Shown here: positions 14,440 to 29,681 of the stretch, piece by piece
How positions within the stretch are numbered: position 1 is the stretch's first letter
Layout: each line of letters opens with the position of its first letter
Assembly (NCBI GenBank): GCA_040753015.1
Contig: JBFMHM010000003.1
Location: 83,463-147,462, forward strand
Source of the DNA: Candidatus Omnitrophota bacterium
Lineage (GTDB): Bacteria > Omnitrophota > Gorgyraeia > Gygaellales > JBFMHM01
Length of the DNA stretch: 64,000 nt
Reading direction: 5' to 3'
The notes under the pieces: model-generated
Told to the model about the DNA's origin: nothing
Seen by the model: only the letters and a program-made list of their open reading frames with translations
The model's database searches: none
Made by a program: the position numbers and the translations under genes

Positions 14440-16004
<1,565 letters not shown>

Positions 16005-16058
16005 TTATAAAATGAATTTGTTACAATAAAAAATTATTATACACGCAATAACATTTAA

Positions 16059-16074
16059 GTCAAATATATTTGAC
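16059..16074. promoter_or_regulatory. Perfect 16-bp palindrome GTCAAATATATTTGAC in the divergent eno/ftsH promoter region
   Basis: Seen directly; centred ~20 bp upstream of the ftsH-like start at 16089. Confidence 0.3.
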
Positions 16075-16088
16075 GCGGGCTTATTTTT

Positions 16089-17789
16089 ATGTTATTCTTC
16101 TCTATTATGACATGGAAGAAGTTCAAATTTCATTTTAAGCAAAACTGGGCAAAAGTAGCGCTAACAATTGGCTTAACTATATTGCTAATAAGCCTTATTA
16201 TTCTTATTGCAAAAGGTATGCGTTCTTGGAACGAAACCGAACCTTATGTGCGCGAAGCCCAGCTTGCCATGATACCCATACAGCTCTACCTACAATTAGT
16301 TATGGCCCTTATCTTTGGCATCGTATACACTTATATGTGGTATTGGCTGATGTTTAAACGCGGAGCTCAAAGCTTTACGCAAGCTGCAAAAAAATCTATT
16401 GCCGGAGCAAGTATCGGAATTAAATGGACTGATGTTATTGGTATGGATGAAGCAAAACAAGAAGCCCTAGAAGTTGTAAAATTAATTACTGACCGCGCAC
16501 AACTACAAAGAATTGGAGGCAAAATTTTAAAGGGCATTCTAATGATGGGGCCTCCCGGATGCGGAAAAACTTATCTTGCAAAAGCAATTGCAACCGAAGC
16601 AAAAATGCCATTTATTTCAATGTCCGGATCTGAATTTGTTGAAATGTTTGTAGGTGTAGGCGCAGGCCGCATCAGAAGTTTATTCAAGAAAGCCCGCCAA
16701 CTTGCTGAACTTGAAGGCGGTTGTATTATTTTTATCGATGAAATTGATGCCGTAGGAGCCCAACGCGCGGCTGATAGAGGTTTTGGCGGGCAAAGTGAAA
16801 CTAATACCACGTTGAATCAGTTGTTAGTGGAAATGGACGGCCTAAAAGAAAAAGATTTAAATATTGTCATCATCGGAGCAACAAACATGCCCGAGTATTT
16901 CCTTGATGCAGCGCTTCTTCGCCCAGGAAGGTTTGACAGAAAAATTTATGTTGATAAACCCAGCCTCGAGGATAGAGAAAAATTATTCGCTTATTATCTT
17001 AAGAATGTAAAATATGACGAAACAGATGTTAAAATTGACCGCCTAGCAAAAATATCTGTAGGAAACAGCCCTGCTGATATCGCAAACATCATCAGAGAAG
17101 CTGCGCTAATTGCTGTACGCAACAGTAAACCAGCAATAACAATGAAAGACATAGATGATGCGCGTGAACGAATTGCCCTTGGCATAAAACGCCGAATAAA
17201 AATAAGCGATAAACAAAAATTACAGACCGCCTATCATGAGGCAGGCCATGCTATAGTAACATATCTTTTAGTACCGACAAAAGATGTGTTTAAAATTACA
17301 ATTACGCCGCGTGGGCACACCGGAGGCGTTACTTGGGTGCCTGAAAAAGAAGAAATTTTAATCGAGGATCAAACGCAACTTCTAAACGATATTAGAATAT
17401 CTCTTGGCTCGTATGCAGCAGAAAAAATTAAGCTCGGGTTTACCACATCCGGTGTGGGAAGCGATTTTGCAAATGCCCTTTATACCGCGCATAATATGGT
17501 TTGGCGTATGGGTATGGGCAAATCTGGAATAATCGGTGATTTCCATGCCCTTGATTTTTATCGGCGTGTTGGCGGACAACCGCTAATGTCTGAGGAAATC
17601 AAAGCACAACTTGACAAAGACACGCAAGATATCATGCAAACATGCCTTAAAGAAGTATCTAGCCTCCTCAAACAAGAAGAACCTCTTCTAGACAGGCTTG
17701 CTAAAGAATTAATTACAAAAGAAGAACTCAATTATGATGAAATTGAAACTATCTTTAAGGAGTTTGGCAAAACTAGGCCTGCTGCTTAA
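16089..17789 (+). CDS. ATP-dependent zinc metalloprotease FtsH-like (AAA+ and peptidase M41), short N-terminal region
   Basis: Walker A GPPGCGKT, SRH region, and zinc site HEAGHA. Two N-terminal TMs with only a short intervening loop. Confidence 0.75.
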   Translation: MLFFSIMTWKKFKFHFKQNWAKVALTIGLTILLISLIILIAKGMRSWNETEPYVREAQLAMIPIQLYLQLVMALIFGIVYTYMWYWLMFKRGAQSFTQAAKKSIAGASIGIKWTDVIGMDEAKQEALEVVKLITDRAQLQRIGGKILKGILMMGPPGCGKTYLAKAIATEAKMPFISMSGSEFVEMFVGVGAGRIRSLFKKARQLAELEGGCIIFIDEIDAVGAQRAADRGFGGQSETNTTLNQLLVEMDGLKEKDLNIVIIGATNMPEYFLDAALLRPGRFDRKIYVDKPSLEDREKLFAYYLKNVKYDETDVKIDRLAKISVGNSPADIANIIREAALIAVRNSKPAITMKDIDDARERIALGIKRRIKISDKQKLQTAYHEAGHAIVTYLLVPTKDVFKITITPRGHTGGVTWVPEKEEILIEDQTQLLNDIRISLGSYAAEKIKLGFTTSGVGSDFANALYTAHNMVWRMGMGKSGIIGDFHALDFYRRVGGQPLMSEEIKAQLDKDTQDIMQTCLKEVSSLLKQEEPLLDRLAKELITKEELNYDEIETIFKEFGKTRPAA

Positions 17790-18630
17790 TCTTTTTTTTA
17801 TCCCCATATTTTTTCTCGGTTGCACAAACAATAAAAATATACCGCAATCAAAGACAGGCATTGACAAAATTATCGTAGATACCTGCAAACAAAAATATAA
17901 TATCGATGTTACAACGAGAATTTCTGGGCAAACGCTTTGGATTTATTTACCACTGGAAGATATCATAGAAAAGGCGCAAAAAGAGGAAAAATTTACCGAA
18001 CGATATTCCGCGGAAAAAATTGACACTGATTTTGCCGAAGAAACAATAAAAATAGATTATTTGATTAGAGATGTCCCGGAGACAGAAAAAACCCACCAGG
18101 TAAGCTACACAAAAGATGCTAAAGATAAAATTAATAGAGTTTGGAAAGTAATTCATAGCGCAATTTTCGATATCAAACACAGCTTTAATGAAGGAATGCA
18201 ATTTTTTTGTTTTGTAATTGCCGATATAAAAAATGGCTTTGAGGTAAAACAAGTTGCTTATGTGCCGGACTTAAAAAAAATATCTTACGGAATTATCTTA
18301 GGTAATGAATTTCAGCATCGTACCGTAACAGAGGACCTTAATATATCATTTGATATTACGGGCGATAAAACCGGAAAACACTTAGAATACCATGATATAA
18401 CCTTAAATGAATTCTTAAGCGGCCAAATTAAACAACGGATAAAACAAAAATTCCAACGCCCAGAAGTTGATAGAAATATTGATATTGACCAAGAGATAAT
18501 AAAAACAACAATTTACGTTTTAAAAGTTTATGACTTCAAAGATTTTTCAGAGGTTGAATTCAATAATTTACTCACCAATAAAAACTCTACCCTTGGCAAG
18601 ACACTTATTTGGAAGGATTTAGTTAGATAA
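17734..18630 (+). CDS. Hypothetical lipoprotein
   Basis: Lipobox-like FFLGC after a hydrophobic N-terminus. The 5' end overlaps ftsH by 56 nt, so the true start may be further downstream. Confidence 0.4.
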   Translation: MMKLKLSLRSLAKLGLLLNLFFIPIFFLGCTNNKNIPQSKTGIDKIIVDTCKQKYNIDVTTRISGQTLWIYLPLEDIIEKAQKEEKFTERYSAEKIDTDFAEETIKIDYLIRDVPETEKTHQVSYTKDAKDKINRVWKVIHSAIFDIKHSFNEGMQFFCFVIADIKNGFEVKQVAYVPDLKKISYGIILGNEFQHRTVTEDLNISFDITGDKTGKHLEYHDITLNEFLSGQIKQRIKQKFQRPEVDRNIDIDQEIIKTTIYVLKVYDFKDFSEVEFNNLLTNKNSTLGKTLIWKDLVR

Positions 18631-18648
18631 AATCTATTGAAAAAATAA

Positions 18649-19455
18649 TCAAAATTTGGGTTTAATGCTATATTTCTCTATAAGCAGCGGAATTGTTTGT
18701 TTGGCATTTACGATCAAATCTGCTTCGGTTTCTTCGAATAAAAATGGCCTAAGCGTTTCAGCTTGTTTTTTTAATTCATCATTAGAAAAATCCTCTATTC
18801 TTTTTATAATGCTATCTAAGGGGTTGGATTTAATCCCTAATGCCCTCAAAACATCAATATTAATTGGATACTTATTGGAAAGCATAAACATAATATCATA
18901 AATATGCCTTGCGCGATTTTTCTTATTTAAAGCATCTATTTTATCCGCAAATAACGCTCCTTTTTCCGTGCATATACAAGGATATAGCTCACCAAAGGCG
19001 GATATAAGTTGGGTGTCTGGCTTTATTTCCCATTTAGGATTATTGGTTTCTACTTTAATAATAATACCTGATTTTTGTGAATATTTAGATATAACATTAT
19101 ATGATTTTTCAATATCAGGAAAAATTAATTTTGAAACATAAATATTATCCCAATGGCCAAATTCCAGCGCTAATTTTATTCCAACGCGTTCTAATTCTAT
19201 TTTTATTTTTTTTAAAATACCCTCGAATAAAACTCTATCCATATTGCTTGCATTAAAATCCAAATCCTCAGAAAATCTCTTTAGATTATGCACCAGTCTT
19301 AAATAAGTTCCGCCGGTGAAAAAAAGCGATTTGGTTTGTTTGTATAATTCCTTTAATACTAGAACCTGTAAATACTCCCTCAAAATTCCTCTAACTTTAC
19401 TAGTAGGCATTTGTCTTACCTTGGCTTGCTCTATTAAAGAATCATAGGTTAGCAT
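18649..19455 (-). CDS. Nucleotidyltransferase AbiEii/AbiGii toxin family (DUF1814) of a type IV toxin-antitoxin system
   Basis: Hallmark motif GGTYLRLVHNLKRFSEDLDF; ~268 aa; overlaps the upstream AbiEi-like gene by 14 nt. Confidence 0.7.
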   Translation of the reverse strand: MLTYDSLIEQAKVRQMPTSKVRGILREYLQVLVLKELYKQTKSLFFTGGTYLRLVHNLKRFSEDLDFNASNMDRVLFEGILKKIKIELERVGIKLALEFGHWDNIYVSKLIFPDIEKSYNVISKYSQKSGIIIKVETNNPKWEIKPDTQLISAFGELYPCICTEKGALFADKIDALNKKNRARHIYDIMFMLSNKYPINIDVLRALGIKSNPLDSIIKRIEDFSNDELKKQAETLRPFLFEETEADLIVNAKQTIPLLIEKYSIKPKF

Positions 19456-20053
19456 AAATCAACTCCTTTAGGTTAAGCTTATAAATTTGCGCGTATTTAT
19501 CCAATTTTTTCTTCTTGAGATTGGAAATAATATCTCTATCAAGCCTCTCTTCTTCAAAATTAAATTTTTTATTGCGATAAGTTTTAAAATATAAATAATC
19601 CACTAATGCTTTTTCCGGTTCAGCAATAAAAATATCAAAGTTTCCCTGTTTTTCTACATAATAACCGCAAAATGCCTCTGGCTTAACTGTACGATAGGTA
19701 AAAAGGCCGTGTTTATTTTTAAATTTACGCGTAGATTTTGTAGTAACAGAAGTTACACTCATAGCAACTTCGGAAATAATACTATAATTAGATAGAGCTG
19801 TCTCTAGAGACACATAAGATGGCGCATACAATCTATTTGCAATATAAAAATCCGGAATATTGAAATCTCTGGGGTAGCTTAATTCGTAACACTCTTTCTT
19901 TAAAGCAGTTAACCAGCCCTTCTCTTTCCATCTAGAAATCATTTTCTTAAGATTGATTTTATTTTCTTTGGGAAAAAATGCTAAAGTATCTTTAAAAGAA
20001 AAAAGGTAATATTTATTTTGCTCCAATTTTCCGTATAAATCATGGAATTTCAT
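19442..20053 (-). CDS. AbiEi-like antitoxin / transcriptional regulator (COG5340 family)
   Basis: YVSLETALSNYSIISE and IAEPEKALVDYLY motifs typical of AbiEi; directly upstream of, and overlapping, the AbiEii gene. Confidence 0.55.
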   Translation of the reverse strand: MKFHDLYGKLEQNKYYLFSFKDTLAFFPKENKINLKKMISRWKEKGWLTALKKECYELSYPRDFNIPDFYIANRLYAPSYVSLETALSNYSIISEVAMSVTSVTTKSTRKFKNKHGLFTYRTVKPEAFCGYYVEKQGNFDIFIAEPEKALVDYLYFKTYRNKKFNFEEERLDRDIISNLKKKKLDKYAQIYKLNLKELIYANL

Positions 20054-20133
20054 TAAGTATACCTTTCTGTCTACCTACGGAAATAAGTATATAATACAAA
20101 TTTCCTTCTGTCAAGTTTATTTTCAAAAAAGTT

Positions 20134-23100
20134 TTACCCAACAATTGTAATCTGTATTTGCGACAAGTCAATACCGCCGGTTGTAACAGGCGCGGTTTTT
20201 GCGCCTTGTCCTTTAGACGATACAGATTGTGCTTTGGCTAATACTTCCATTTCTTCTAAAGTTGTATTTGGATCGCTCGCCTTAGCCGCAGCAAGGTCAT
20301 CGATAAGCGGCTTAAACACTAGCTCTAATATTTCTTTATAATCACCGGCAATATGCAGGCCTTCTAAGTTAACGCGTATTCCAGCTTTAATTTCATTTAA
20401 AGCGGCAATAAGTAAATCAAATGATTGCTCATCATAATATTTATCGCTAGTTAATATTCTAATTACTTGCTTTGCCCGCTCAGTAATAGGGGCATCTAAT
20501 AAATCCGAGCCATTTAATTTAGCGATAAGTTCTTGTTTTAAAGCGGGCGATAAAACCGCTGCGCTAAATTGGTGCTCGGTTAATTTAGGAGCTTTAGCGT
20601 TAGCGCGAATACGATCAATTGTTCTTTGTAATTCTAAAAGTGCAGCTGGGTCTATTTTAACAATAGCCGTCCTTATAACTGATTCCATATCATATGAATC
20701 ACCAAGAGCTTTAAAATATGGTAACTGTTTAATCAAGAATTCAACTGTAGCTGGATCAGCGATCCGACCAAGCGCATTAATAATGGCTTTCCACTCTTGA
20801 ATTTTATCATCATACGAGGTCTCTGCCGCATGTTTTCCCATAACATCTTGATATGCCTTGATAAGCGCTTCTACTATTACCGGATTTCTTTCTCGTCCAA
20901 ACAGACGAATTATAGCCATCCTTTTATTTACATCATTGCTTACTTGAAGGTCCCTAATAACGCGCGAAACGCGTATTGGCACGCCTAACGCTTCAAGAAA
21001 AGGAAATAAAATTTTATCACAATAAGCTTGGTCGGTCTTAGGCAATCGATTGATTAAATCTTTGCGCCAGTTTGCCCATTGCTCAATTTCCGGATTAAAA
21101 CAACATCTTACATATTCTAAAAAAGCTTTGGTAAAAACACTCTGCGTATCTTCATATAAGGGGCGGGTAAGATCACCGGATTTTAATCTTACATATATTG
21201 CTTGTTCAAAATCTTTAATTATTAGATCTATCACAACCTTATTGCCAGCCTGCGATAAAGCAACAATAATAGCTTCTAAATCTTTGTCTTTCTGTAAAAG
21301 CCGTTTTAATTTCGTATATTGCTTTTCAGTAAAGCTTTCCTGATGAGTATTTGCTATTTGTATAAGGCTTGCTAATACTTCGGGTTTATTTTCATCTTGC
21401 GGTAATTGTTGCCTACGAGTTGGGGCTTGCGCATATTCTACGCGCCCAAGTAATACACTGACCGCCTCTTCTGTACCAATCTTACCCAACTCTGTAATAG
21501 CATCTTTGCGTGTTTGGTCTGGGTCGGTTCTCATTGCAATAAGCACACGAAAGTCTGCTTTTAGTTTAGGCCAATTATAATCAGTAGTTTCAATGATTTG
21601 AGCACATCTTTTAACTGCTTGCTCTCTTTGGCCTTTAGTCAAATCTTCAGCAAGTAATACACCGGTTAGCTGGAATTCAAGCTCTGTATTATAACGGCTA
21701 TCTCTTTTGCAAAGTTCAGTGTGTATTGCAACCATTGTATCTATTGCTTCAATTGCCGGGCCAAGAAGAATACGCTCTGCTAATCTGCGTGAGCCTTGAT
21801 GACATAGCTGTTGATTATTAACCATAGCATCAAGTGTCTCTACTGCTTTATCTTGATCAATTTTAGTTAAAAGTAATGACAAGAATTCAATACATTGAAC
21901 CTCATCGGATAACTTATAACTAACTATAGCTAATCTAGGCTGGTTTTGGCCTAGCGTATTTATAAAAATAGCTATTACCTGAGGTTCTTGTACGGCTATA
22001 AGCTCTACCATAAGATCAAAGGCAACAACGCCTTTAGCTTTAGCAAAGCCTGATAATGCTTTAACAACATCTGCTGGCAAGCGGCCAAGTATACATATAT
22101 CCGAGACTCTTCTTAGTTCTCTTGCGTATACTTGCTGCGGTGAGTCACTATCTGTTGTTCTTGCTGTAGCTGCAACACTGGCTTGTTGTTTTAATTTTTG
22201 CAACTTATCATAACTTCTACTAAGTTCAGTTTGTATTGCTTCTATGTCATCGATACTCTTTTGAAAGCTTATAGTTTCTGTTTGGCCTTTAGTTACAGTT
22301 CCTTGCTGCCTTATTGCATCTACTAAAGCAATAAGACTATTTACAGTAGTAAGCCCGGCAATTTTATCTTCGGTTTCAAGATGAGTTCTGATAGCAGCAA
22401 TATATGGTTTATATATTCTTGTTTCCATCATATGGGCAAGCACATAACAAGATAATGGTAAATTAATAAGGACTTCTTCAGTAAGTGTTCCTTTATATTG
22501 AGCAAAGCAAAGCCTAGCTCTTGCAGAGTCTAAAAAGCTTAGCCAAGTTATTAGGCTTACCACATCATCAGAAGTCCTGGCAAAACTACCCATAAATACT
22601 AAAGTTGCTGTTTCTGTATCTAAGTAAGTGAGTAATTCTAATACAGCTGGTTGTATATCTGGCTGCCTTGTAAGATTAACTAACATTCTAACGGCTTGTT
22701 CTTTATTACAATTAGTGCTTATAAGCAGTGCTATTTGACTAAACGCTTCTTGTCTTTGGGAGTTAGTAAGACAAGTTGCTTCTTGAAGCAATGTTCTTAG
22801 CCTTTGAGCAAGCGGTAGGCTTGTAACAGGCCAGGCCTTGTTTCTTGGAGAGAACATATCCATAACTCGCTTAGCTATACCTAATTCTTGCGGCTTTTCT
22901 TCATCTTCTGATACTTGAGCTTCTGGAATAGCTAAAGCAGTTATTGTTGTTCTTGCTTCAACAACATAATCTTCAAATAAAATACCAGCTGCTTGTAATT
23001 GTAATTCTGACCGTCTTTCATCTGTTATTGCCTCTGTAACAACAGCTAATCCTGGCGTAGATAGTTCAACATTAGTTACAAATATTGGCCTGTTGGCAAT

Positions 23101-26100
23101 ATACCTTAAGTTCCATCCTAACCTATTTATGAAGTAGCCTGCTCTTTGAGCTTTAGTGCCGTTATCTGCAGTTTGCGTATCACTAACCTGCTCTAACGTT
23201 AGATTATCCCTTAAAGATACGAAGAAATCATCTTGAATATTGCCATTAGTAATAGTCTCATTAACAACATCAACCAAGTATTCAAATACTAATCTTAGTT
23301 CTTGTAAAGAAGAGCTTGTTAGATTATTAATAACGCCTCTTGATAACAAGGCTGTTTCGCTATCTATGTAAGCTAAGGCAGTTTCAAGTATTAGCCTTTG
23401 CTCTTGACTGCCAGCTTGAGCATGCCTAATCATGCGCCTAAAATCAAGTAAGGTATATGCTAAATGCCTGCGCCTCTGCTCTGAATAAGCTAGGCCTTTA
23501 GATAAGTCTAAGTCTTGAAGCATGGGGCTTATACCGCTAGTTGCAGCTGCAGCTAAGACTGGGAGGGTTTGTGGAGAAGCAGCAGGGATTTCTGCTGTTC
23601 TTACCACACCAGACTTTTGGCTTTGAGTGGTTTGTTTTAGAGTTAACAAGCCTTTTCTGGTTTTTTCGTATTCTACGGTTACTTCTATACCTAGGATATC
23701 TTTTAAGGCTTGGGCTAAGTCTGTTGAGTCAGAGGTTTGAAGTAGTGTTAGAAAGTTTATTTCTTTACCTGTTTTTTCTCTTAATTGTTTATCTATTTCG
23801 TTGATGACTTTTTGAAGGGCTTCATTAGGCGCTGCACCTCCTCTTCCAAATTCAATGCCTAGTAAGTCGCAAAGGTCTTCTTCTAATTGCTTGAGTTTAG
23901 CTTTTTTGGTTTTCTTTTCTGAATAAAGCTGGTTTAAGTTAATTCCTGCGTCCTTTACTATTTGCTCAAGGCTAATGCCTTTTTCTTCTAAGTAATCTAT
24001 TACCACATGGCCTGTCTCATGGCCTTGAATGAAGTTAAGTACTTGCTCTAATGTAGGTATATTGTTATTAAAGTATTGCCTGAAATCTTTTAAATGCTTT
24101 TTTAATAGGTTACGGTTTACAATGTATATTGTACGAATATACTTAGTTATTCCTTCTACTACCTTCATTACCCTTGTAAATAGGCCGTGTATACGGTTAC
24201 GTAACATTAATGTTCTGTAAAGAAGGCGAAAACCAATTTCATATTGCTCAACAATGTCTTCTATTTTTTCTTCGCCACAGCATCTTAATGTTACGCCGTT
24301 TACTGTAATTTCGCTAGCTAATCCAGTTCTTTTGCGAGCACTATGAAGCCTTGCCGCAATAGCAGGTATTTCTGAATTTAAACTAGCATCTTCGATATGA
24401 ATATTACCATAGGTTATAGTAGTTTTTAATCTCCAAATTATTATACCTCTAGAGCCACTGGCATCACGTTGAAAGCCAACCTGCTCTATCATCATTTCTA
24501 ATGTATCCAAAATATAAACAAGATTTTCGCGGCTGATACCAGGACATAAATTCTCAACTTTTTCCTTAAGTATTTCATATATTCTGGATATACCACCACG
24601 AACACCAATCATAACGTTATCTCCAAAAACAAGAGATAATACTTTTTTTGCAAATTGCACTGATTCAGACAAAGAACCAGAAACTATTGAAGAATCTCTT
24701 TTAGCCCATATAGAATGCCCTTTAGTAACAGAACTATCACCTATATATTCTAATCGGCTCTCCACAATAGCAATTATTCTATCAACCATATTCGTATCCA
24801 TATTAGGATAATATTGCAATATGGTATTCCTAATACTTTGAAATAAATCAATTTTATCTCCAGGCCATTCTATCATCATAGTTCGATGCGATCGCCCTTG
24901 AGTCGGATCTGTTAGCTGTGAATTAGTAAAAAGGCTGGCCAGTATTTGTTCTGCTAAAAGGCGGCATTTTTCTTCCATCTCCATAGCTGACAATACAGCT
25001 GTTTTTGAAATTCCACCTTCTTTTAAAACGGCTTCATTAATTATTCGAAGTTCACTGGGCATTTTTGTAGTATCTACCTTTACATCAGCAAGCCCTATAG
25101 CTGTTAATCGTTCTTCTAATGTAGAGGCATCTGTGGTAAGAAATGTGGTTAGGCTTTGTTTCAATTGTCCTTTTAGAATGCTATCGAGCTTTTCAAGCTC
25201 ATCTTCTAAGTCTTTTGGTATGGCTATTTGCCCTAAGGCAAAGGCTAAACCAAATATATCTGCAAGCCGTTCTTCTTCAGTTTCAGATATTTCAGTTAAA
25301 AGATTACCTTGTAATTTTAGATTATCAATAAGTGCATGAAAGGTTTCGTGGCCATCTAAAAACCTAAGTGCTTGTTCTAATGTAGGAACAAAACCAAATA
25401 TTGGCTCAAAATCAGATAAGTGTTCTTGCACGCTCTGTTTATTTACATAAATAACTTTGCCATCTAATGTACGAACATATAAACCATGAATTAATGCTCT
25501 TTGTTCTTCAAATTGTTTTGTTTCTGGATTCCAAGTTAAAACACCTTTACAATTCGTTTTTTGTATTTTAAAGGCTTTTACCACATCACCAGGAGCAACA
25601 ATTTCTGAAAGAGGCATTGTAACATTAACTCCCCCACTAACATAGCTTCTTCTAATATTAGCCTTTAGCTCTTCATTGTAGTTAGTTTTAGAGAGGTGGT
25701 ATTCTCCTTGTTTTACTGAGTCTAGGTATGCAGCAAAGATTTGTTGTGGGGTTACAGGTTCTTTTGAGATAAGACCGTTTAGGTTGTTGGTGTTAATGAT
25801 TGATGAAAAGGCGTTCTTCAGTTCGTCCGTTCGCTGGTTCGTCAGTTCTTCTAACTTTTCGCTTTGACTTTTCCCGCCTGAGGCGGGTCCGCCTTTGGCG
25901 GATACGTTTTCTTTGTACCACTTAGCTAGTATTATTGCATTGTAAATTTGTCTTAGTGACTCATAGCTAGGGTCATGGTTTACTTTATAGGTTAGGTTAG
26001 GTAGTATTAGTTCTTTTAGTTGAGCTTCACAGTAGGATTGTAACTCTTGGTTGTTATCAAACTCCCCCTTTATCCCCCTCTTTGGTAAAGAGGGGGTCTG

Positions 26101-26772
26101 GGGGAGTTGTAGATACTCACTTTCCAGTAACACTTTCAGTGTTGATTTGGTTATTACACAGCTACCTTTTCCGTCTTCGTATACTTCTGCTTTGTCTGGG
26201 ACTATCCAGACACGGAAGGTTGTGGGAATACTAAGGGTTCGTCTGTTCTTCAGTTCGCCAGTTCGTCGGTTAGATAATTGTTTTGCCTTGGCAAATACAC
26301 GTTCCCAATAGGTAGTTGCTCCTGTAGATAATCCGGGAAATAGGCTAAAGGCTGTGTCTTTCTTAAGCTTTAGGTCTAGGAGTAGTAGATGCTTACCCAT
26401 GTCTGTGTAGGATAGATTAGTTCCTGTGAGCCTGTTAGGTTGGTTTGGGTTAAGGTTAACCCAGAATTCAGAGTCGTCTATTGTTAGAGCTGTTAGAAAG
26501 TAGTTTATGTTGGTCTGTAGGTTGTTACGTTGGTCTAGGGAAAGAATGGTGCCTTTGGGGATGTTTAGGTTGAATTGGATACCTGTAGAGACGCACTGCA
26601 GTGCGTCTCTACCATTTAAATCAATGCCCAATAATGTTGGGTTTAATTGCCCTGATGATATTTGGGTTATGTTTTGAAAACCATAACATAAGTGGTTAAA
26701 ACAAAAAATCCCTGCTAATAATAAGATAAATATACGTTTCATAGTTAAATTCATGATTAAATCAAAAATCAA
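20134..26772 (-). CDS. Giant secreted multidomain protein (2212 aa): signal peptide, two tandem zincin-like HExxH modules, long HEAT/PBS-lyase-like C-terminal region
   Basis: Single uninterrupted ORF with a hydrophobic N-terminus. Two HExxH sites, GHETFHA at aa 474-480 (nt ~25330-25350) and GHETGHV at aa 917-923 (nt ~24001-24021). Each is preceded by the same PTLEQ(A/V)L.F..GHE context and followed by E-rich ...EERLADIFG / ...EEDLCDLLG segments resembling thermolysin NEAISDIFG. The C-terminal ~1200 aa are helical repeats such as NPVIVEALIKAY...ALGRIADPATVEFLIKQL. Confidence 0.7.
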   Translation of the reverse strand: MIFDLIMNLTMKRIFILLLAGIFCFNHLCYGFQNITQISSGQLNPTLLGIDLNGRDALQCVSTGIQFNLNIPKGTILSLDQRNNLQTNINYFLTALTIDDSEFWVNLNPNQPNRLTGTNLSYTDMGKHLLLLDLKLKKDTAFSLFPGLSTGATTYWERVFAKAKQLSNRRTGELKNRRTLSIPTTFRVWIVPDKAEVYEDGKGSCVITKSTLKVLLESEYLQLPQTPSLPKRGIKGEFDNNQELQSYCEAQLKELILPNLTYKVNHDPSYESLRQIYNAIILAKWYKENVSAKGGPASGGKSQSEKLEELTNQRTDELKNAFSSIINTNNLNGLISKEPVTPQQIFAAYLDSVKQGEYHLSKTNYNEELKANIRRSYVSGGVNVTMPLSEIVAPGDVVKAFKIQKTNCKGVLTWNPETKQFEEQRALIHGLYVRTLDGKVIYVNKQSVQEHLSDFEPIFGFVPTLEQALRFLDGHETFHALIDNLKLQGNLLTEISETEEERLADIFGLAFALGQIAIPKDLEDELEKLDSILKGQLKQSLTTFLTTDASTLEERLTAIGLADVKVDTTKMPSELRIINEAVLKEGGISKTAVLSAMEMEEKCRLLAEQILASLFTNSQLTDPTQGRSHRTMMIEWPGDKIDLFQSIRNTILQYYPNMDTNMVDRIIAIVESRLEYIGDSSVTKGHSIWAKRDSSIVSGSLSESVQFAKKVLSLVFGDNVMIGVRGGISRIYEILKEKVENLCPGISRENLVYILDTLEMMIEQVGFQRDASGSRGIIIWRLKTTITYGNIHIEDASLNSEIPAIAARLHSARKRTGLASEITVNGVTLRCCGEEKIEDIVEQYEIGFRLLYRTLMLRNRIHGLFTRVMKVVEGITKYIRTIYIVNRNLLKKHLKDFRQYFNNNIPTLEQVLNFIQGHETGHVVIDYLEEKGISLEQIVKDAGINLNQLYSEKKTKKAKLKQLEEDLCDLLGIEFGRGGAAPNEALQKVINEIDKQLREKTGKEINFLTLLQTSDSTDLAQALKDILGIEVTVEYEKTRKGLLTLKQTTQSQKSGVVRTAEIPAASPQTLPVLAAAATSGISPMLQDLDLSKGLAYSEQRRRHLAYTLLDFRRMIRHAQAGSQEQRLILETALAYIDSETALLSRGVINNLTSSSLQELRLVFEYLVDVVNETITNGNIQDDFFVSLRDNLTLEQVSDTQTADNGTKAQRAGYFINRLGWNLRYIANRPIFVTNVELSTPGLAVVTEAITDERRSELQLQAAGILFEDYVVEARTTITALAIPEAQVSEDEEKPQELGIAKRVMDMFSPRNKAWPVTSLPLAQRLRTLLQEATCLTNSQRQEAFSQIALLISTNCNKEQAVRMLVNLTRQPDIQPAVLELLTYLDTETATLVFMGSFARTSDDVVSLITWLSFLDSARARLCFAQYKGTLTEEVLINLPLSCYVLAHMMETRIYKPYIAAIRTHLETEDKIAGLTTVNSLIALVDAIRQQGTVTKGQTETISFQKSIDDIEAIQTELSRSYDKLQKLKQQASVAATARTTDSDSPQQVYARELRRVSDICILGRLPADVVKALSGFAKAKGVVAFDLMVELIAVQEPQVIAIFINTLGQNQPRLAIVSYKLSDEVQCIEFLSLLLTKIDQDKAVETLDAMVNNQQLCHQGSRRLAERILLGPAIEAIDTMVAIHTELCKRDSRYNTELEFQLTGVLLAEDLTKGQREQAVKRCAQIIETTDYNWPKLKADFRVLIAMRTDPDQTRKDAITELGKIGTEEAVSVLLGRVEYAQAPTRRQQLPQDENKPEVLASLIQIANTHQESFTEKQYTKLKRLLQKDKDLEAIIVALSQAGNKVVIDLIIKDFEQAIYVRLKSGDLTRPLYEDTQSVFTKAFLEYVRCCFNPEIEQWANWRKDLINRLPKTDQAYCDKILFPFLEALGVPIRVSRVIRDLQVSNDVNKRMAIIRLFGRERNPVIVEALIKAYQDVMGKHAAETSYDDKIQEWKAIINALGRIADPATVEFLIKQLPYFKALGDSYDMESVIRTAIVKIDPAALLELQRTIDRIRANAKAPKLTEHQFSAAVLSPALKQELIAKLNGSDLLDAPITERAKQVIRILTSDKYYDEQSFDLLIAALNEIKAGIRVNLEGLHIAGDYKEILELVFKPLIDDLAAAKASDPNTTLEEMEVLAKAQSVSSKGQGAKTAPVTTGGIDLSQIQITIVG
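25873..25902. repeat. GC-rich double-hairpin element, copy B (CCCGCC-TGA-GGCGGG then TCCGCC-TTT-GGCGGA), in frame inside the giant gene
   Basis: Seen directly. Encodes SAKGGPASGGKS at aa 291-302 of the giant protein. Same orientation and reading frame as copy A. Confidence 0.6.
26077..26099. repeat. Nested GC-rich hairpin CCCCCTCTTT-GGTA-AAGAGGGGG (outer ACTCCCCC...GGGGGAGT) in frame in the giant gene
   Basis: Seen directly; encodes PSLPKRGIKG; strongly GC-rich against a ~30% GC background. Confidence 0.5.
26585..26612. repeat. Perfect 28-bp palindrome GTAGAGACGCACTGCAGTGCGTCTCTAC in frame in the giant gene
   Basis: Seen directly; encodes GRDALQCVST near the signal peptide. Confidence 0.5.
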
Positions 26773-26885
26773 AATGCAAAAATCAAAATTACAAATTAAA
26801 ATTCAAAATTAGATTCAAATACCCTAAAATCTTTAATTTTTGATATGTCATTTTGATATTTGATTTTTAATATTTGATATATTCT
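26758..26885. promoter_or_regulatory. AT-rich iterated motif block upstream of the giant gene (AAAATCAAAAT repeats facing TTTGATAT/TTTGATTTT repeats)
   Basis: Seen directly: at least 5 AAATCAAAA-type units at 26758-26820 and at least 4 TTTGAT(A/T)T units at 26838-26880, reverse complements of each other. Lies in the ~365-bp region 5' of the giant ORF. Confidence 0.3.
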
Positions 26886-26954
26886 TATAGTATAAGTATG
26901 CACTATAGATAGGCTAATTTCAAGGGTTTTGGGGCGAAAAATGTAAGCGGTTAC

Positions 26955-26990
26955 AAATCAGGTATACCTCTTGGTGATTATACCTGATTT
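26955..26990. other. Perfect 12-bp inverted repeat AAATCAGGTATA ...12 nt... TATACCTGATTT (stem-loop)
   Basis: Seen directly, in the intergenic region between the leuA-3' duplicate and the giant gene; no flanking T-run. Confidence 0.3.
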
Positions 26991-27060
26991 GATCCCGAGT
27001 CATACGAGGGAACTATCATATAACCACTTTAAAATACTAGACTTAAGAATTACGCAGTAT

Positions 27061-27127
27061 ATTTATTTATTGCGTTTAGGTAGGCTTTAATTGAGGCTTC
27101 AATTACATCTGTTGAACTGCCGCGGCC
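27061..27127. repeat. Direct-repeat copy (~67 bp, ~90% identical) of the leuA 3'-terminal coding segment 28187..28253
   Basis: 27061-27115 is identical to 28187-28241 (55/55), then ~10/14 more bases match. This copy lies 10 bp beyond the yhcG-like stop, so the ~1.06-kb yhcG segment is bracketed by the repeats. Confidence 0.7.
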
Positions 27128-27137
27128 AATTTTAAGT

Positions 27138-28145
27138 TTATTTCACAATATTTAATTTTTTCGCCCAGTCTTTCGATGAGGGCAAATATTTTTTTAGCGT
27201 CTTTGGCAACGACTTATTTAAAGAATATGTCGAAACACCTATCGGTTTTTTAACATCCTTAAGGGCATATTCAACAACTGTACGGCTCTTACTTTTACAA
27301 ATAATAATTCCAATGGCCGGATTTTCTTCTTCAAGTTTATCCCGATCATTAAGCGCAGAAAGATAAAACTGCATCTTCCCAGCATACTCAGGTTTAAAAT
27401 CGCCGATCTTAAGCTCAATTGCAACTAAACATCTCAATTTTCTATGATACAAAAGAATATCCACGAAATATTCGCGGCCGTCAATCTCTATCCTATGTTG
27501 ATTGGTGATAAAACAAAAGTTTCCGCCTAATTCCAGCAGAAACCGCCTAACATTTACCATGAGTGCCCGCTCCAACTCATTCTCCAAATGCTCATCACCC
27601 AATTCCAAAAAATCAAATGTGTACTCATCCTTAACAGCGAGTTTTGCTTGATTTCGAATATTAACGGGCACTGTTTTGTCAAAGCTAGTCTGATTAAGAA
27701 GCGTTTTATCGTAAGACTGATTCTCGATTTGATGAATAAGAACATCTTTCGTCCACCCGAACTTCTTAGTCATGTTGATATAGAAAACGCGCGCTTCTTC
27801 TTTCTTGCACTGGCTCATAATAACCAGATGTTTCGCCCAACTAATTTCTCCAACCAATGGTTGGAGAATTAAGCTCCCTTGATATTCTCCATAAAACTGC
27901 CTCATATACCAAAGATTCTGCGACGAAAAACCCTTGATTCCCGGAAATTCCTTTTGTAAATCTTGAGCTAATGTTTCAACAATCGCCTTACCCCACCCAA
28001 ACTCTTTTTGCTTCTCAATAATCCTTCTCCCAATATCCCAATAAAGCGCAATAAGTTCTTTATTAACAACTTTTAATGCTTCATATTGCGAAGAGCGAAC
28101 TCGTTCTTTAATATCCTCAAGAAAAAACTTATAATCACTATTCAA
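27138..28145 (-). CDS. YhcG/DUF1016 family PD-(D/E)xK nuclease
   Basis: N-terminus (...YEALKVVNKELIALYWDIGRRIIEKQKEFGWGKAIVETLAQDLQKEFPGIKGFSSQNLWYMRQFY...) matches the conserved YhcG-N/DUF1016 pattern. The C-terminal region has a PD-(D/E)xK-like core (IGIIICK...). Confidence 0.65.
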   Translation of the reverse strand: MNSDYKFFLEDIKERVRSSQYEALKVVNKELIALYWDIGRRIIEKQKEFGWGKAIVETLAQDLQKEFPGIKGFSSQNLWYMRQFYGEYQGSLILQPLVGEISWAKHLVIMSQCKKEEARVFYINMTKKFGWTKDVLIHQIENQSYDKTLLNQTSFDKTVPVNIRNQAKLAVKDEYTFDFLELGDEHLENELERALMVNVRRFLLELGGNFCFITNQHRIEIDGREYFVDILLYHRKLRCLVAIELKIGDFKPEYAGKMQFYLSALNDRDKLEEENPAIGIIICKSKSRTVVEYALKDVKKPIGVSTYSLNKSLPKTLKKYLPSSKDWAKKLNIVK

Positions 28146-28175: not shown

Positions 28176-29681
28176 TTAAACGACTAATTTATTTATTGCG
28201 TTTAGGTAGGCTTTAATTGAGGCTTCAATTACATCTGTTGACGAGCCACGGCCAAAGATTTCTTTATTTTTTATAGTTAGTTTTAGCGTTACTTCCCCTT
28301 GAGCGTCTTTACCGTGAGTTACCGCAGAAATTTTATAGTCAGAAAGTTTTGGTGTTAATTTAGTAATTTTATCAATTGTTCTAAAACAGGCATCAACCGG
28401 ACCATCCCCCGAAGACTCTGCACAAACATTCTTTCCTTCAAATTTTAAAATAATTGCGCTTTTTGGTTTGATCTTATTACCTGAAGTTATTTCAAAACTT
28501 TGCAATTTATAGATTTCTTTAACTTTTTTTATTTCTTCATCTAAAATAATCAATAAATCATCATCAAAAATTTCTTTTTTCTTATCGGCAAGATCTTTAA
28601 ATTTTATAAAAGCCTCATCAATTTGTTTTTGGCTTAATTTAAATCCTAATTTTTCAAGGCGGCTAGTAAAGGCATGACGGCCAGAGTGTTTTCCAAGCAC
28701 AATTCCTTCAATAATAAAACCGACATCTTCAGGGTTAATTATTTCATATGTTGATGCCTCTTTTAATACACCGTCCTGGTGAATTCCTGACTCATGACGA
28801 AAAGCATTTCCACCAACAATTGCTTTATTCCGCGGAACCTCAAAACCCGTAAGTTTACTAACCAAGCGAGAAGTCTTGCAAATTTCTTTTGTATTGATCG
28901 TTGTATATAAATTTTTGAATATGTTTTTCTTTACCCACATCGCCATAACTATTTCTTCTAAGCTTGCGTTTCCTGCGCGCTCACCAATACCATTAATAGT
29001 ACATTCCACTTGGCGCGCCCCATTTAAAACTGCACTCAAACTATTTGCACTAGCAAGTCCTAAGTCATTATGACAATGCACAGAAATAACTACCCTATCA
29101 ATATTAGGCACATTATTTTTTATATCACGAATAAGTTCGCCAAAACCCTGCGGCTCAGTAAAACCAACGGTATCGGGAATATTTATCGTTTTTGCACCAA
29201 CATCAATTACAGCTTCTACGACTTTATACAAAAATTCTTTTTCTGTCCTTGCCGCATCTTCTGGAGAAAATTCAATATCGTTAATATATTTTTTCGCATA
29301 TTTTACACTCTCAACTGCCAGGCGCAAAATTTCATCTTTAGCCTTATTAAGCTTGAATTTTCTATGAATTGGGGATGTTGCTAAAAATACATGTATACGA
29401 GGACGCTTTGCTTTTTTAACAGCCTGATATGCCGCGTCTATATCTTTACGGGTTGCACGCGCTAAGCCGCACACGCCGCATTTTTTTATTTTCAAAGCAA
29501 CAGTCTCAACCGCCTTAAAATCTCCTGGGCTTGCAATAGGAAAACCTGCTTCAATAATATTAACCCCTAAGCGCTCTAACTGTAAAGCAACTTCAAGCTT
29601 TTCTTGAGGGTTTAATGCTGCGCCCGGCGCCTGTTCTCCATCACGCAGAGTCGTATCAAAAATAACTACTTTTTCATCCAT
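28176..29681 (-). CDS. leuA: 2-isopropylmalate synthase
   Basis: N-terminal [11 protein letters not shown] and HxH motifs (HCHNDLGLA); ~500 aa with the LeuA dimerisation/regulatory C-terminus. Confidence 0.85.

Follow-up and report, generated by a model that had tools for sequence, protein, structure and literature searches.

The window analyzed here, a 64,000-nt stretch of an Omnitrophota contig, carries on its minus strand an open reading frame (ORF) of 2,212 codons counted from a TTG at 26772 (20134..26772). As first annotated, the ORF is real: AB1755_03975, a hypothetical MAG protein of Candidatus Omnitrophota at NCBI, matches its product from end to end with 100% identity. Translation likely starts at the ATG at 26742 (M11 in the TTG-based numbering used throughout), yielding the same 2,202-residue product as the NCBI entry instead of the 2,212 residues initially proposed. 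The features of the protein and its surroundings are given in Table 1. Scans of the giant protein against Pfam, NCBIfam, PADLOC and PHROGs returned weak HEAT matches and nothing else, and no toxin family was found by any of the four.

Table 1. Features of the giant gene, its product and the neighboring toxin-antitoxin pair (residues numbered from the TTG at 26772)
Feature	Residues	Nucleotides	Strand	Basis or remark
Giant protein CDS		20134..26742	-	2202 aa from the likely ATG start; stop codon 20134-20136
Signal-peptide-like N-terminus	11-31	26680..26742	-	Hydrophobicity; MKRIFILLLAGIFCFNHLCYG
Family-defining N-domain	~42-384	25621..26649	-	WVNLNP at aa 104-109; end YVSGGV at aa 377-382
HExxH module, copy 1	422-601	24970..25509	-	Duplication, motif, AF2, hhalign
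HExxH of copy 1	475-479	25336-25350	-	
EERLADIFG of copy 1	500-508	25249-25275	-	
Inter-module segment	602-853	24214..24969	-	Between the module copies
HExxH module, copy 2	854-1069	23566..24213	-	Duplication, motif
HExxH of copy 2	918-922	24007-24021	-	
EEDLCDLLG of copy 2	964-972	23857-23883	-	
Orphan cargo region	1070-2198	20179..23565	-	Helical, few HEAT-like repeats
HEAT_2 match	1744-1789	21406-21543	-	Pfam, sub-threshold
HEAT_PBS match	1996-2015	20728-20787	-	Pfam, sub-threshold
C-terminal GGID tail	2199-2212	20137..20178	-	Minimal version; GGIDLSQIQITIVG
AbiEi/AbiEii toxin-antitoxin pair		18649..20053	-	AbiEi 19442-20053, AbiEii 18649-19455; Pfam, PADLOC

Downstream of the giant gene, the AbiE pair of the initial annotation was confirmed by PADLOC (AbiEi, E = 1.4e-44; AbiEii, E = 1.9e-37) and Pfam (AbiEii, E = 8.9e-17), the two genes overlapping by 14 nt. 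Of the sigma-70-like sites in the region, the best (11/12 matches, 20114-20086) falls between the stop codon of the giant gene and abiEi; AbiE has a promoter-like site of its own and is probably a separate transcription unit and an independent neighbor. A functional partnership between AbiE and the giant protein was considered and rejected on account of this site and of the existence of other family members without AbiE. PADLOC also detected a YhcG-like PDC-S02 candidate nearby, and the surroundings of the giant gene are probably a defense-island-like stretch, flanked by the chromosomal housekeeping genes eno, purB, leuA and ilvC. No immunity-like gene was found adjoining the giant gene.

A shared frame around variable cargoes

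The giant protein belongs to a large Omnitrophota family set by its N-domain and a C-terminal GGID motif, of which at least 584 loci were found across species-representative genomes. Among 80 loci listed, most bore the label Omnitrophota, the rest being labelled 'uncultured Planctomycetales/Planctomycetia' plus two Deltaproteobacteria. The N-domain spans ~350 residues, follows the pattern WVNLxP ... LKKDT ... WIVP ... LKVxLExDY ... LRQxY ... Y[FV]SGG and yielded no fold match. In nearly all complete family members a GG[IV][DN] motif stands 14-135 residues before the C-terminus (paralog P0004 ends in GGIDLSQVQITIIG), and nearly all members share a signal-peptide-like N-terminus; all three elements are present in the giant protein. 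Its signal peptide, already claimed at the outset, was recovered upon manual reading of the N-terminus as a signal-peptide-like stretch that follows MKR and covers aa 14-28. No other 15-mer of the protein is strongly hydrophobic (Kyte-Doolittle value at aa 14, 2.29), and AF2 modeled this end as a helix leading into disorder. Judging from its N-terminus, the protein is presumably exported.

About nine N-domain paralogs are encoded in the source MAG; their N-domains are 44-87% identical, and the parts downstream differ or are mosaic. Across the family, cargoes are mostly enzymes rather than adhesion domains and comprise SNF2 helicase, methyltransferase, HTH arrays, RelA/SpoT, deaminase, JAB and HEAT scaffolds. 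Many are ordinary metabolic enzymes, with transketolase, enolase and phosphoglucomutase found behind an apparent export signal. In P0127, a distant relative from Streptomyces, the order is permuted, a signal peptide being followed by a polymorphic-toxin-type deaminase (XOO_2897-like) as the cargo, GGIDF, the N-domain and a TM anchor; even here GGID comes after the cargo, as it always does. Through the combination of this deaminase with the same N-domain, the frame is connected to architectures of secreted toxins and effectors. Next to two other relatives, P0017 and P0006, lay housekeeping genes or a further large ORF; neither a secretion system nor an immunity gene was among them. Absent from the initial annotation were both the family membership and the status of the HExxH unit as a mobile module within this family. 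A viral origin was considered as well and rejected, the N-domain occurring in only 4 of the 2.9 million viral contigs of IMG/VR and the giant protein having no PHROG match.

The cargo of the giant protein itself is an orphan. HEAT repeats had been ascribed to the entire C-terminal ~1,200 residues, an assignment that was not supported: the two Pfam matches, to HEAT_2 (27.3 bits for a cut-off of 27.7) and HEAT_PBS (16.4 bits for a cut-off of 20.9; E = 0.014), were both sub-threshold, the HEAT-like repeats amounted to ~300 residues, and self-BLAST of the cargo revealed no internal repeats. No match to PDB sequences was obtained with the cargo region, and its sole homologue among 5.8 billion proteins was that of paralog P0002 from the same MAG (63% identity), which yielded a strong HEAT match of 114 bits, above the Pfam threshold.

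The duplicated HExxH module

Both HExxH sites and the Glu-rich segments EERLADIFG and EEDLCDLLG were present where first reported. The duplication that had been noted along with them was also borne out (aa 425-596 against aa 858-1064, 29% identity, E = 1e-16), with a repeat unit of ~180-215 residues rather than the ~440 residues originally ascribed to it. The second His and the candidate third-ligand Glu are 22 residues apart in copy 1 (H479-E501), where D505 lies at +4 from E501, and 43 residues apart in copy 2, where an insertion of ~21 residues separates the two motif helices. Upon shuffling of the protein, HExxH occurred on average 0.02 times per shuffle and at least twice in 0.02% of 20,000 shuffles, and in none of these were two or more HExxH accompanied by the downstream ExxxD. 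Alignment of 31 module copies revealed E476 and H479 to be invariant (31/31) and H475 and E501 (30/31 each) and E500 (29/31) nearly so, followed by G474 (27/31), G508 (26/31), F507 (25/31), D473 and D505 (23/31 each) and D483 (20/31). The segment between the two copies gave no family match and no mapped homologue except the identical protein itself.

A search of 1.84e9 representatives with the module returned 38 matches, mostly in proteins with the same frame. One to three copies are found per protein, interspersed with other segments; of 44 copies, about 10 immediately precede the GGID tail and about 7 immediately follow the N-domain, and the cargoes found together with the module differ widely. 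By its sequence, the module is a rare, undescribed, zinc-protease-like unit, present in two copies in the giant protein.

AF2 modeled copy 1 with a pLDDT of 88.6 and a pTM of 0.84. In this prediction, an N-terminal helix (416-425) and a two-stranded beta-hairpin (428-443) lie upstream of the HExxH helix (465-487, DSSP), which is followed by a loop (488-496) and a helix bearing E500 and E501 (497-513), with two more strands far downstream (564-567 and 588-593). Since the midpoint between H479 and E501, residue 490, falls inside the predicted loop, the arrangement would fit a thermolysin-type helix hairpin. Residues ~520-600, more than half of the module, are predicted as a helical subdomain that has no counterpart in small zincins. 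In the best local alignment obtained with hhalign, H475, E476, H479, D483, E501 and D505 stood opposite H142, E143, H146, D150, E166 and D170 of thermolysin (42 columns, 29% identity, one-to-one P = 0.0026, probability 11%). Like thermolysin (MEROPS M4, clan MA(E)), the module thus displays HExxHAxxD followed ~20 residues later by ExxxDIFG, in register, and the likeness of HExxH...ExxxD to thermolysin pointed out in the initial annotation is real, being kept across the 31 module copies. In thermolysin and neprilysin, the Asp of this pattern orients the first His. Unlike thermolysin, the module is devoid of the M4 N-terminal beta-domain and C-terminal domain (His231/Tyr157 equivalents), and the two-lobed fold with its beta-rich N-terminal and helical C-terminal lobes is absent; it comprises ~180 residues inside a 2,202-residue chain, compared to 316 residues for thermolysin.

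None of the 31 copies matched Peptidase_M4 or Peptidase_M4_C of Pfam at E <= 10, faint Pfam matches to SprT-like (E = 0.01) and M78 (E = 0.03) being seen in one copy each. A PDB profile search with the module returned no peptidase and no match at all, and the top Foldseek match was a weak one to BlaR1, an M56 gluzincin (E = 0.65, probability 0.08); in none of the Pfam, PDB-profile and Foldseek searches was the module placed significantly among the zincins. Taking the predicted structure and the motif together, the module core (beta-hairpin, HExxH helix and ExxxD helix) would be a zinc site, that of a minimal metallopeptidase of the gluzincin type. It is also conceivable, but in our opinion unlikely, that the module is not a peptidase and that its HExxH/EE metal site supports another type of hydrolysis (for instance of cell-wall or lipid substrates) or a purely structural or regulatory role within a helical domain. 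Such a role would accommodate the large helical subdomain and the finding that no peptidase family was matched significantly in profile searches, but the full HExxHAxxD...ExxxDxFG pattern is, to our knowledge, specific to gluzincin peptidases and hhalign selected exactly that register, and the catalytic Glu of HExxH, retained in every one of the 31 copies, is not needed by a purely structural metal site. If the module is an active peptidase, it would establish a new gluzincin family without a Pfam, NCBIfam or PDB relative, bearing a thermolysin-type site on a much smaller scaffold.

Proposed role and comparison with known systems

In the reading that we favor, and in which we place about even confidence, the giant protein is an exported modular 'frame-and-cargo' protein whose module pair provides built-in proteolytic processing. 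The frame would consist of a Sec-type signal peptide, the ~350-residue N-domain and the C-terminal GGID tail, enclosing the two ~180-residue modules and a helical orphan cargo of ~1,100 residues that includes a few HEAT-like repeats; the modules would cleave in cis, or in trans on paralogs, thereby separating cargo from frame. The positions of the module copies relative to the frame follow the pattern expected of a peptidase acting at frame-cargo junctions. The toxin-type deaminase of P0127, the mosaic paralogs of the MAG and the defense-type neighbors of the gene also speak for this reading. Most likely, the modules would be built-in processing or releasing peptidases, a role like the one proposed for the zincin-like peptidase domains of polyvalent proteins and for peptidases that release polymorphic and PVC toxins. 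Points against processing are the lack of a zincin assignment by profile or fold, the prediction of only two strands before the HExxH helix, the absence from the giant protein of the KPM motif found after many module copies, and the lack of a recognizable toxin domain or immunity gene.

The zincin-like MPTase domains of polyvalent proteins, which have been proposed to carry out autoproteolytic processing (Iyer et al. 2017, PMC5512222), have a core made of an N-terminal helix and a three-stranded beta-sheet ahead of the HExxH helix (PMC5512222). In its predicted structure the module shares with them a small core of HExxH helix and Glu helix, which would follow a small beta-sheet, and the topology is alike, except that two strands are predicted in the module rather than three. 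MPTase domains occur in one to five copies scattered among unrelated domains of very large proteins, similar to what is seen here, and the SNF2 helicase, methyltransferase, HTH-array, RelA/SpoT, deaminase and JAB cargoes of the frame family overlap the repertoire of polyvalent proteins. In contrast, polyvalent proteins are encoded by phages or conjugative elements and delivered with DNA, whereas the frame family is chromosomal and Omnitrophota-wide and is further set apart by its signal peptide, conserved N-domain and GGID tail. A relationship of the module to any MPTase clade, by sequence or by fold, could not be demonstrated.

A second point of comparison is the PVC-metallopeptidase, the proposed releasing peptidase of toxins (Zhang et al. 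2012, PMC3482391), whose signature is HExxHxxQ-E compared to HExxHAxxD...EExLADIFG in the module. As in polymorphic toxins, a constant N-terminal part is combined with highly variable downstream domains from recombination and a relative of the frame carries an XOO_2897-like deaminase; as with PVC-type releasing peptidases, a candidate HExxH...E peptidase stands ahead of the variable part. Unlike polymorphic and PVC toxins, the giant protein has no PVC, T6SS, T7SS or Rhs markers and no recognizable toxin/immunity pair at its locus, and many cargoes of the family are ordinary metabolic enzymes. Within polymorphic toxin systems, some toxins are themselves HExxH peptidase domains (PMC3482391), and the modules could, with rather low probability, be an active metallopeptidase payload directed at host, prey or competitor proteins, the HEAT-like region then acting as a targeting scaffold. 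The signal-peptide-like N-terminus, the host-dependent or predatory lifestyle inferred for Omnitrophota (PMC10066038), and the conservation of the module motif are consistent with such a payload, the last no less so with processing. Up to three modules per protein are found, however, between segments or at frame junctions rather than in the C-terminal 'toxin' position, very different cargoes share the same module, and the giant gene adjoins no immunity-like gene.

Omnitrophota are known for giant ORFs of 10,000-147,000 residues with many TM helices (PMC10066038; bioRxiv 10.64898/2026.06.07.730766), which are thought to be tied to a host-dependent lifestyle (Seymour et al. 2023, PMC10066038). 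The giant protein resembles these in coming from the same phylum and in being very long and poorly annotated, with a signal peptide or TM helices, but differs from them in its size of 2,202 residues, its single N-terminal hydrophobic segment and its membership of a separate N-domain/GGID family. It is very unlikely that, as proposed for the giant ORFs (PMC10066038), it is essentially an adhesin or cell-surface coat protein made by an ultra-small episymbiont, its HExxH motifs being degenerate or incidental. Its signal-peptide-like N-terminus and an orphan helical cargo with HEAT-like, protein-binding repeats would suit a coat or adhesin; yet the giant ORFs, exceeding 20 kb and rich in TM helices and adhesin domains, are of a different class, the motif residues of the module are near-invariant rather than degenerate, and enzymes rather than adhesion domains dominate the cargoes of the family.

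Consistent with the initial annotation, in which the architecture was not recognized as a described family, no known family covers the module or the full protein. A literature search found neither the frame nor the HExxH module described, the frame family was not found described in the Omnitrophota literature consulted, and no mention of the N-domain/GGID frame was found in the accessible portions of PMC10066038 and bioRxiv 10.64898/2026.06.07.730766. The family context, with its at least 584 loci, about nine paralogs in one MAG, an N-domain without a fold match and cytoplasmic enzymes of central metabolism as cargoes behind an apparent export signal, weighs more than the module itself. Omnitrophota being thought of as host-dependent or predatory nanobacteria (PMC10066038), the frame family is a concrete candidate for their interaction machinery.

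Beyond built-in processing of one protein, the frame might belong to an Omnitrophota-wide 'frame-and-cargo' export or delivery system, with the HExxH module as its own gluzincin-type releasing peptidase, an extension that we consider doubtful. Almost any protein would then fit between an N-domain of novel fold and the GGID tail behind a signal peptide, cuts would be made at GG-hydrophobic junctions (between YVSGG and V, and between GG and ID), and polyprotein effectors, including whole metabolic enzymes, would be shipped to the cell surface or to partner cells. The possibility that the GGID tail is a partial duplicate of the N-domain was rejected (hhalign, two tail alignments, P = 0.27-0.35), the GG motif alone aligning between the two.

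Giant protein and duplicated module

Counted from the ATG at 26742 (M11 in the numbering used here, which starts from the TTG at 26772), the giant ORF encodes 2,202 amino acids and its product is 100% identical to AB1755_03975, a 'hypothetical protein' of the Candidatus Omnitrophota MAG. The flanking genes are ordinary chromosomal ones (purB, eno, leuA and ilvC). The sole strongly hydrophobic segment of the protein (aa 14-28) follows MKR and is compatible with a candidate Sec signal peptide. The two HExxH motifs were found exactly where the initial annotation had placed them, at aa 475-479 (nt 25336-25350) and aa 918-922 (nt 24007-24021), and the Glu-rich blocks that it reported downstream were likewise recovered, as EERLADIFG (aa 500-508) and EEDLCDLLG (aa 964-972). 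The pairing is not due to chance, since shuffled versions of the protein carried a mean of 0.02 HExxH each, reached two or more in 0.02% of 20,000 shuffles, and never combined them with a downstream ExxxD. Upon comparison with each other by BLAST, the two regions aligned over ~200 residues (E = 1e-16, 29% identity). Thus, the proposed duplication stands, but its unit, originally put at ~440 residues, shrinks to ~180-215 residues within the profile bounds of the two copies. Other copies of the module occur in the numbered homologues P0006 (three), P0009 (two), P0005 and P0003 (one each), and only 38 module-bearing proteins were retrieved when 1.84 billion representatives were searched with a profile. 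The module is rare and lineage-restricted.

The ~1,200 C-terminal residues had been read as a HEAT solenoid, which overstates the case because HEAT-type support is confined to two sub- or near-threshold spots, aa 1744-1789 (27.3 bits for a cut-off of 27.7) and aa 1996-2015 (E = 0.014), and because aa 1070-2198 yielded no relative in a PDB sequence search and no internal repeats detectable by BLAST. Among 5.8 billion proteins, this region had a single homologue, the paralog P0002 from the same MAG (63% identity), in which strong HEAT matches are found further along the chain.

Coordinates of the giant gene, its modules and neighbouring genes (nt positions in the window unless marked aa)
Feature	Position	Strand	Remark
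FtsH-like AAA+M41 protein	16089-17789	+	also matches PADLOC IetA
ORF of no assigned family	17734-18630	+	
Giant ORF	20134..26772	-	single uninterrupted reading frame
Module copy 1	aa 422-601		profile-delimited
Module copy 2	aa 854-1069		profile-delimited
YhcG/DUF1016 nuclease gene	27138-28145		upstream of giant gene; PADLOC candidate PDC-S02, E = 2e-142
leuA	28176-29681	-	

Relation of the module to thermolysin-type zincins

E476 and H479 were invariant over 31 module copies, in which H475 and E501 (30/31 each), E500 (29/31), G474 (27/31), G508 (26/31), F507 (25/31), D473 and D505 (23/31 each) and D483 (20/31) were also conserved. The gluzincin signature of thermolysin reads HELTHAVTD...NEAISDIFG, and the Asp at +4 from the third-ligand Glu has a known role in thermolysin and neprilysin. 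At the level of sequence motifs, the module consensus, DGHETxHALxD...EExLADIFG, is this signature, including the Asp four residues past the third-ligand Glu, in agreement with the thermolysin-like resemblance noted initially. In the best local alignment of the module profile with thermolysin, the sequence of which was checked against the PDB, H475, E476, H479, D483, E501 and D505 were paired with H142, E143, H146, D150, E166 and D170; the alignment (hhalign) spans 42 columns at 29% identity with a one-to-one P of 0.0026, yet an hhalign probability of 11%.

An AlphaFold2 model of the module built from the 31-copy alignment was confident (pLDDT 88.6, pTM 0.84). It opens with a short helix and continues through a beta-hairpin (aa 428-443), the HExxH helix (465-487), a 9-residue loop and the helix bearing E500 and E501 (497-513) to a helical subdomain that contains two further strands. 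Midway between H479 and E501 is residue 490, which the model places in the loop, the position that a thermolysin-type hairpin would require. The published minimal zincin-like MPTase core consists of an HExxH helix and a Glu helix together with a small sheet (PMC5512222); the predicted module agrees with it, except for having two strands ahead of the HExxH helix instead of three. The similarity searches did not favour the zincin assignment: a Foldseek search of the model against the PDB returned nothing significant, the top non-significant match being the M56 gluzincin BlaR1 (E = 0.65), and Pfam searches of the module copies gave only faint matches, in one copy each, with SprT-like at E = 0.01 and M78 at E = 0.03. 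Assignment of the module to family M4 was rejected. We consider it reasonably probable that the module represents a new minimal gluzincin-like domain; a domain that binds metal without being a peptidase appears an unlikely reading of the same motif.

Constant frame, variable cargo and proposed processing

More than 30 giant proteins (1,200-3,350 aa), when mapped onto the query, have in common aa ~40-385, an N-terminal domain (N-domain) that follows the signal-peptide-like segment; their middles consist of very different Pfam domains. P0017 combines transaldolase, aminotransferase, transketolase and enolase within a single chain of 3,196 aa, and cargo elsewhere includes phosphoglucomutase, adenylate kinase, HPr, RelA/SpoT, an SNF2 helicase with restriction and methylase domains, HTH arrays and histidine-kinase ATPase domains. 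Cytoplasmic central-metabolism enzymes stand behind a signal-peptide-like N-terminus in P0017 and other members, and the P0017 gene (locus L081) is surrounded by housekeeping genes. In nearly all complete members, a GG[IV][DN] motif lies 14-135 residues short of the C-terminus; the tail is shortest in the query and its paralog P0004 (GGIDLSQIQITIVG), and shorter members (570-850 aa) share this frame. At least 584 family loci were confirmed in species-representative genomes; among the matches listed (80 loci), several loci per genome were seen and most labels were Omnitrophota, the rest being 'uncultured Planctomycetales/Planctomycetia' and two Deltaproteobacteria. This MAG alone contains about nine N-domain genes, plus partial genes at contig ends, and its paralogs are mosaic, with N-domains 44-87% identical and modules and cargo common piecewise.

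P0127 (Streptomyces sp. V4I2, 717 aa) and P0122 are permuted, in the order signal peptide, enzyme, GGIDF, N-domain (ending YVSGG[VI]) and C-terminal TM anchor, the enzyme of P0127 being an XOO_2897-type polymorphic-toxin deaminase. P0127 shows that the frame is present outside Omnitrophota, and the order of parts in these relatives ties it to secreted toxin/effector architectures. GGID directly follows the cargo in both the usual and the permuted arrangement, an indication that the N-domain acts together with the GGID strand. That GGID tails are partial N-domain duplicates was tested and ruled out.

Out of about 44 module copies, ~10 lie 10-20 residues ahead of the GGID tail, ~7 just past the N-domain (among them copy 1 of the query, 37-40 residues after YVSGGV) and the remainder between cargo segments. 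TM-like segments come after some copies (P0006, aa ~598-625 and ~1296-1320) and Tat-signal-like segments with RRDFLK or RRSFFK after others (P0039, aa ~795-830; P0048, aa ~2843-2880), which would fit released downstream fragments bearing their own targeting signal. The twin-arginine-like segments read MPRRDFLKK... and MEINRRSFFKA..., and a conserved [KR]-[PA]-M often precedes TM-like and Tat-like segments. Module placement resembles that of the zincin-like peptidase of polyvalent proteins, present in one to five copies among other domains and proposed to act in autoproteolytic processing (PMC5512222), and that of the releasing peptidases known in PVC-type and polymorphic toxins (PMC3482391). 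Both GG junction motifs are followed by an aliphatic residue (V, I or L). Thermolysin-type enzymes prefer a hydrophobic P1', a preference that this residue would suit.

As the most likely mechanism, we propose that the signal peptide directs export of the giant protein, that the N-domain and GGID tail would form a constant frame, and that the two gluzincin-like modules would release the cargo by cutting their own chain or paralogous ones. In the query, this cargo is an orphan helical, HEAT-like region that is presumably protein-binding. It seems improbable that the modules are instead trans-acting effector peptidases, and more doubtful still that the giant protein is mainly an adhesin or coat. 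Zincin-like processing peptidases and modular secreted giant proteins are already known ideas. The view that the architecture is not a described family held, in that no Pfam or NCBIfam model covers the module and no literature description was found of the module, the N-domain fold, the GGID frame or its phylum-wide use with metabolic-enzyme cargo; there is a slim chance that the frame family marks a new delivery system.

Among P0011-P0034, family members have short, lineage-specific motifs that reappear from one domain boundary to the next and again right before the GGID tail: [AS]SSP[VI] in P0011-P0019, EESPDA[AV]V in P0021 and, in P0022-P0034 and P0089, D-x-A-M-[TSLV]. Their appearance is that of processing sites or polyprotein recombination joints; in the query, no motif of these kinds was evident. 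RRTGELKN and QRTDELKN are encoded, respectively, by a pair of near-identical, GC-rich 24-nt stretches, CGACGAACTGGCGAACTGAAGAAC (window 26245-26268, aa 169-176) and CAGCGAACGGACGAACTGAAGAAC (25813-25836, aa 313-320), where the N-domain model is of low confidence; paralogs have further copies as well as other repeats inserted in frame, VGAIPCLAGRQARNRPITDGRKHGFAPTD and SFDSAQDR being examples. The stretches resemble small repeat elements whose in-frame insertion is tolerated. The C-terminal part of paralog P0007 (AB1755_05820) harbors a JAB/MPN-like H-x-H...S-x-x-D motif (WWHIHPKTLSNYWVGKYSGLD) and, close to the C-terminus, a second HExxx motif, and thus other peptidase-type modules may occupy the family frame.

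Neighbouring genes

The AbiE pair reported downstream of the giant gene was confirmed as AbiEi and AbiEii, 81 nt away. The best promoter-like site of the region stands before this pair, which was treated as an independent neighbour. The 3' end of leuA is present twice as a perfect 55-bp direct repeat (window 27061-27115 and 28187-28241), one copy on either side of the YhcG/DUF1016 gene, and the downstream copy can still be read as a LeuA C-terminal remnant; the arrangement looks like a ~1.1-kb cassette inserted in the 3' end of leuA with target duplication. The stretch 16000-28000, which comprises the FtsH-like gene, the unassigned ORF, AbiEi/AbiEii, the giant gene and the YhcG-like gene, has a GC skew of about 0 to -0.08, as against about -0.2 elsewhere in the window, with most genes still on the minus strand. 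Given this distinct skew, the PDC-S02 match and the bracketing 55-bp duplication, the stretch may represent a small, variable island of defence type lying between eno and leuA. Guilt-by-association hints weakly at a conflict-related role of the giant protein.
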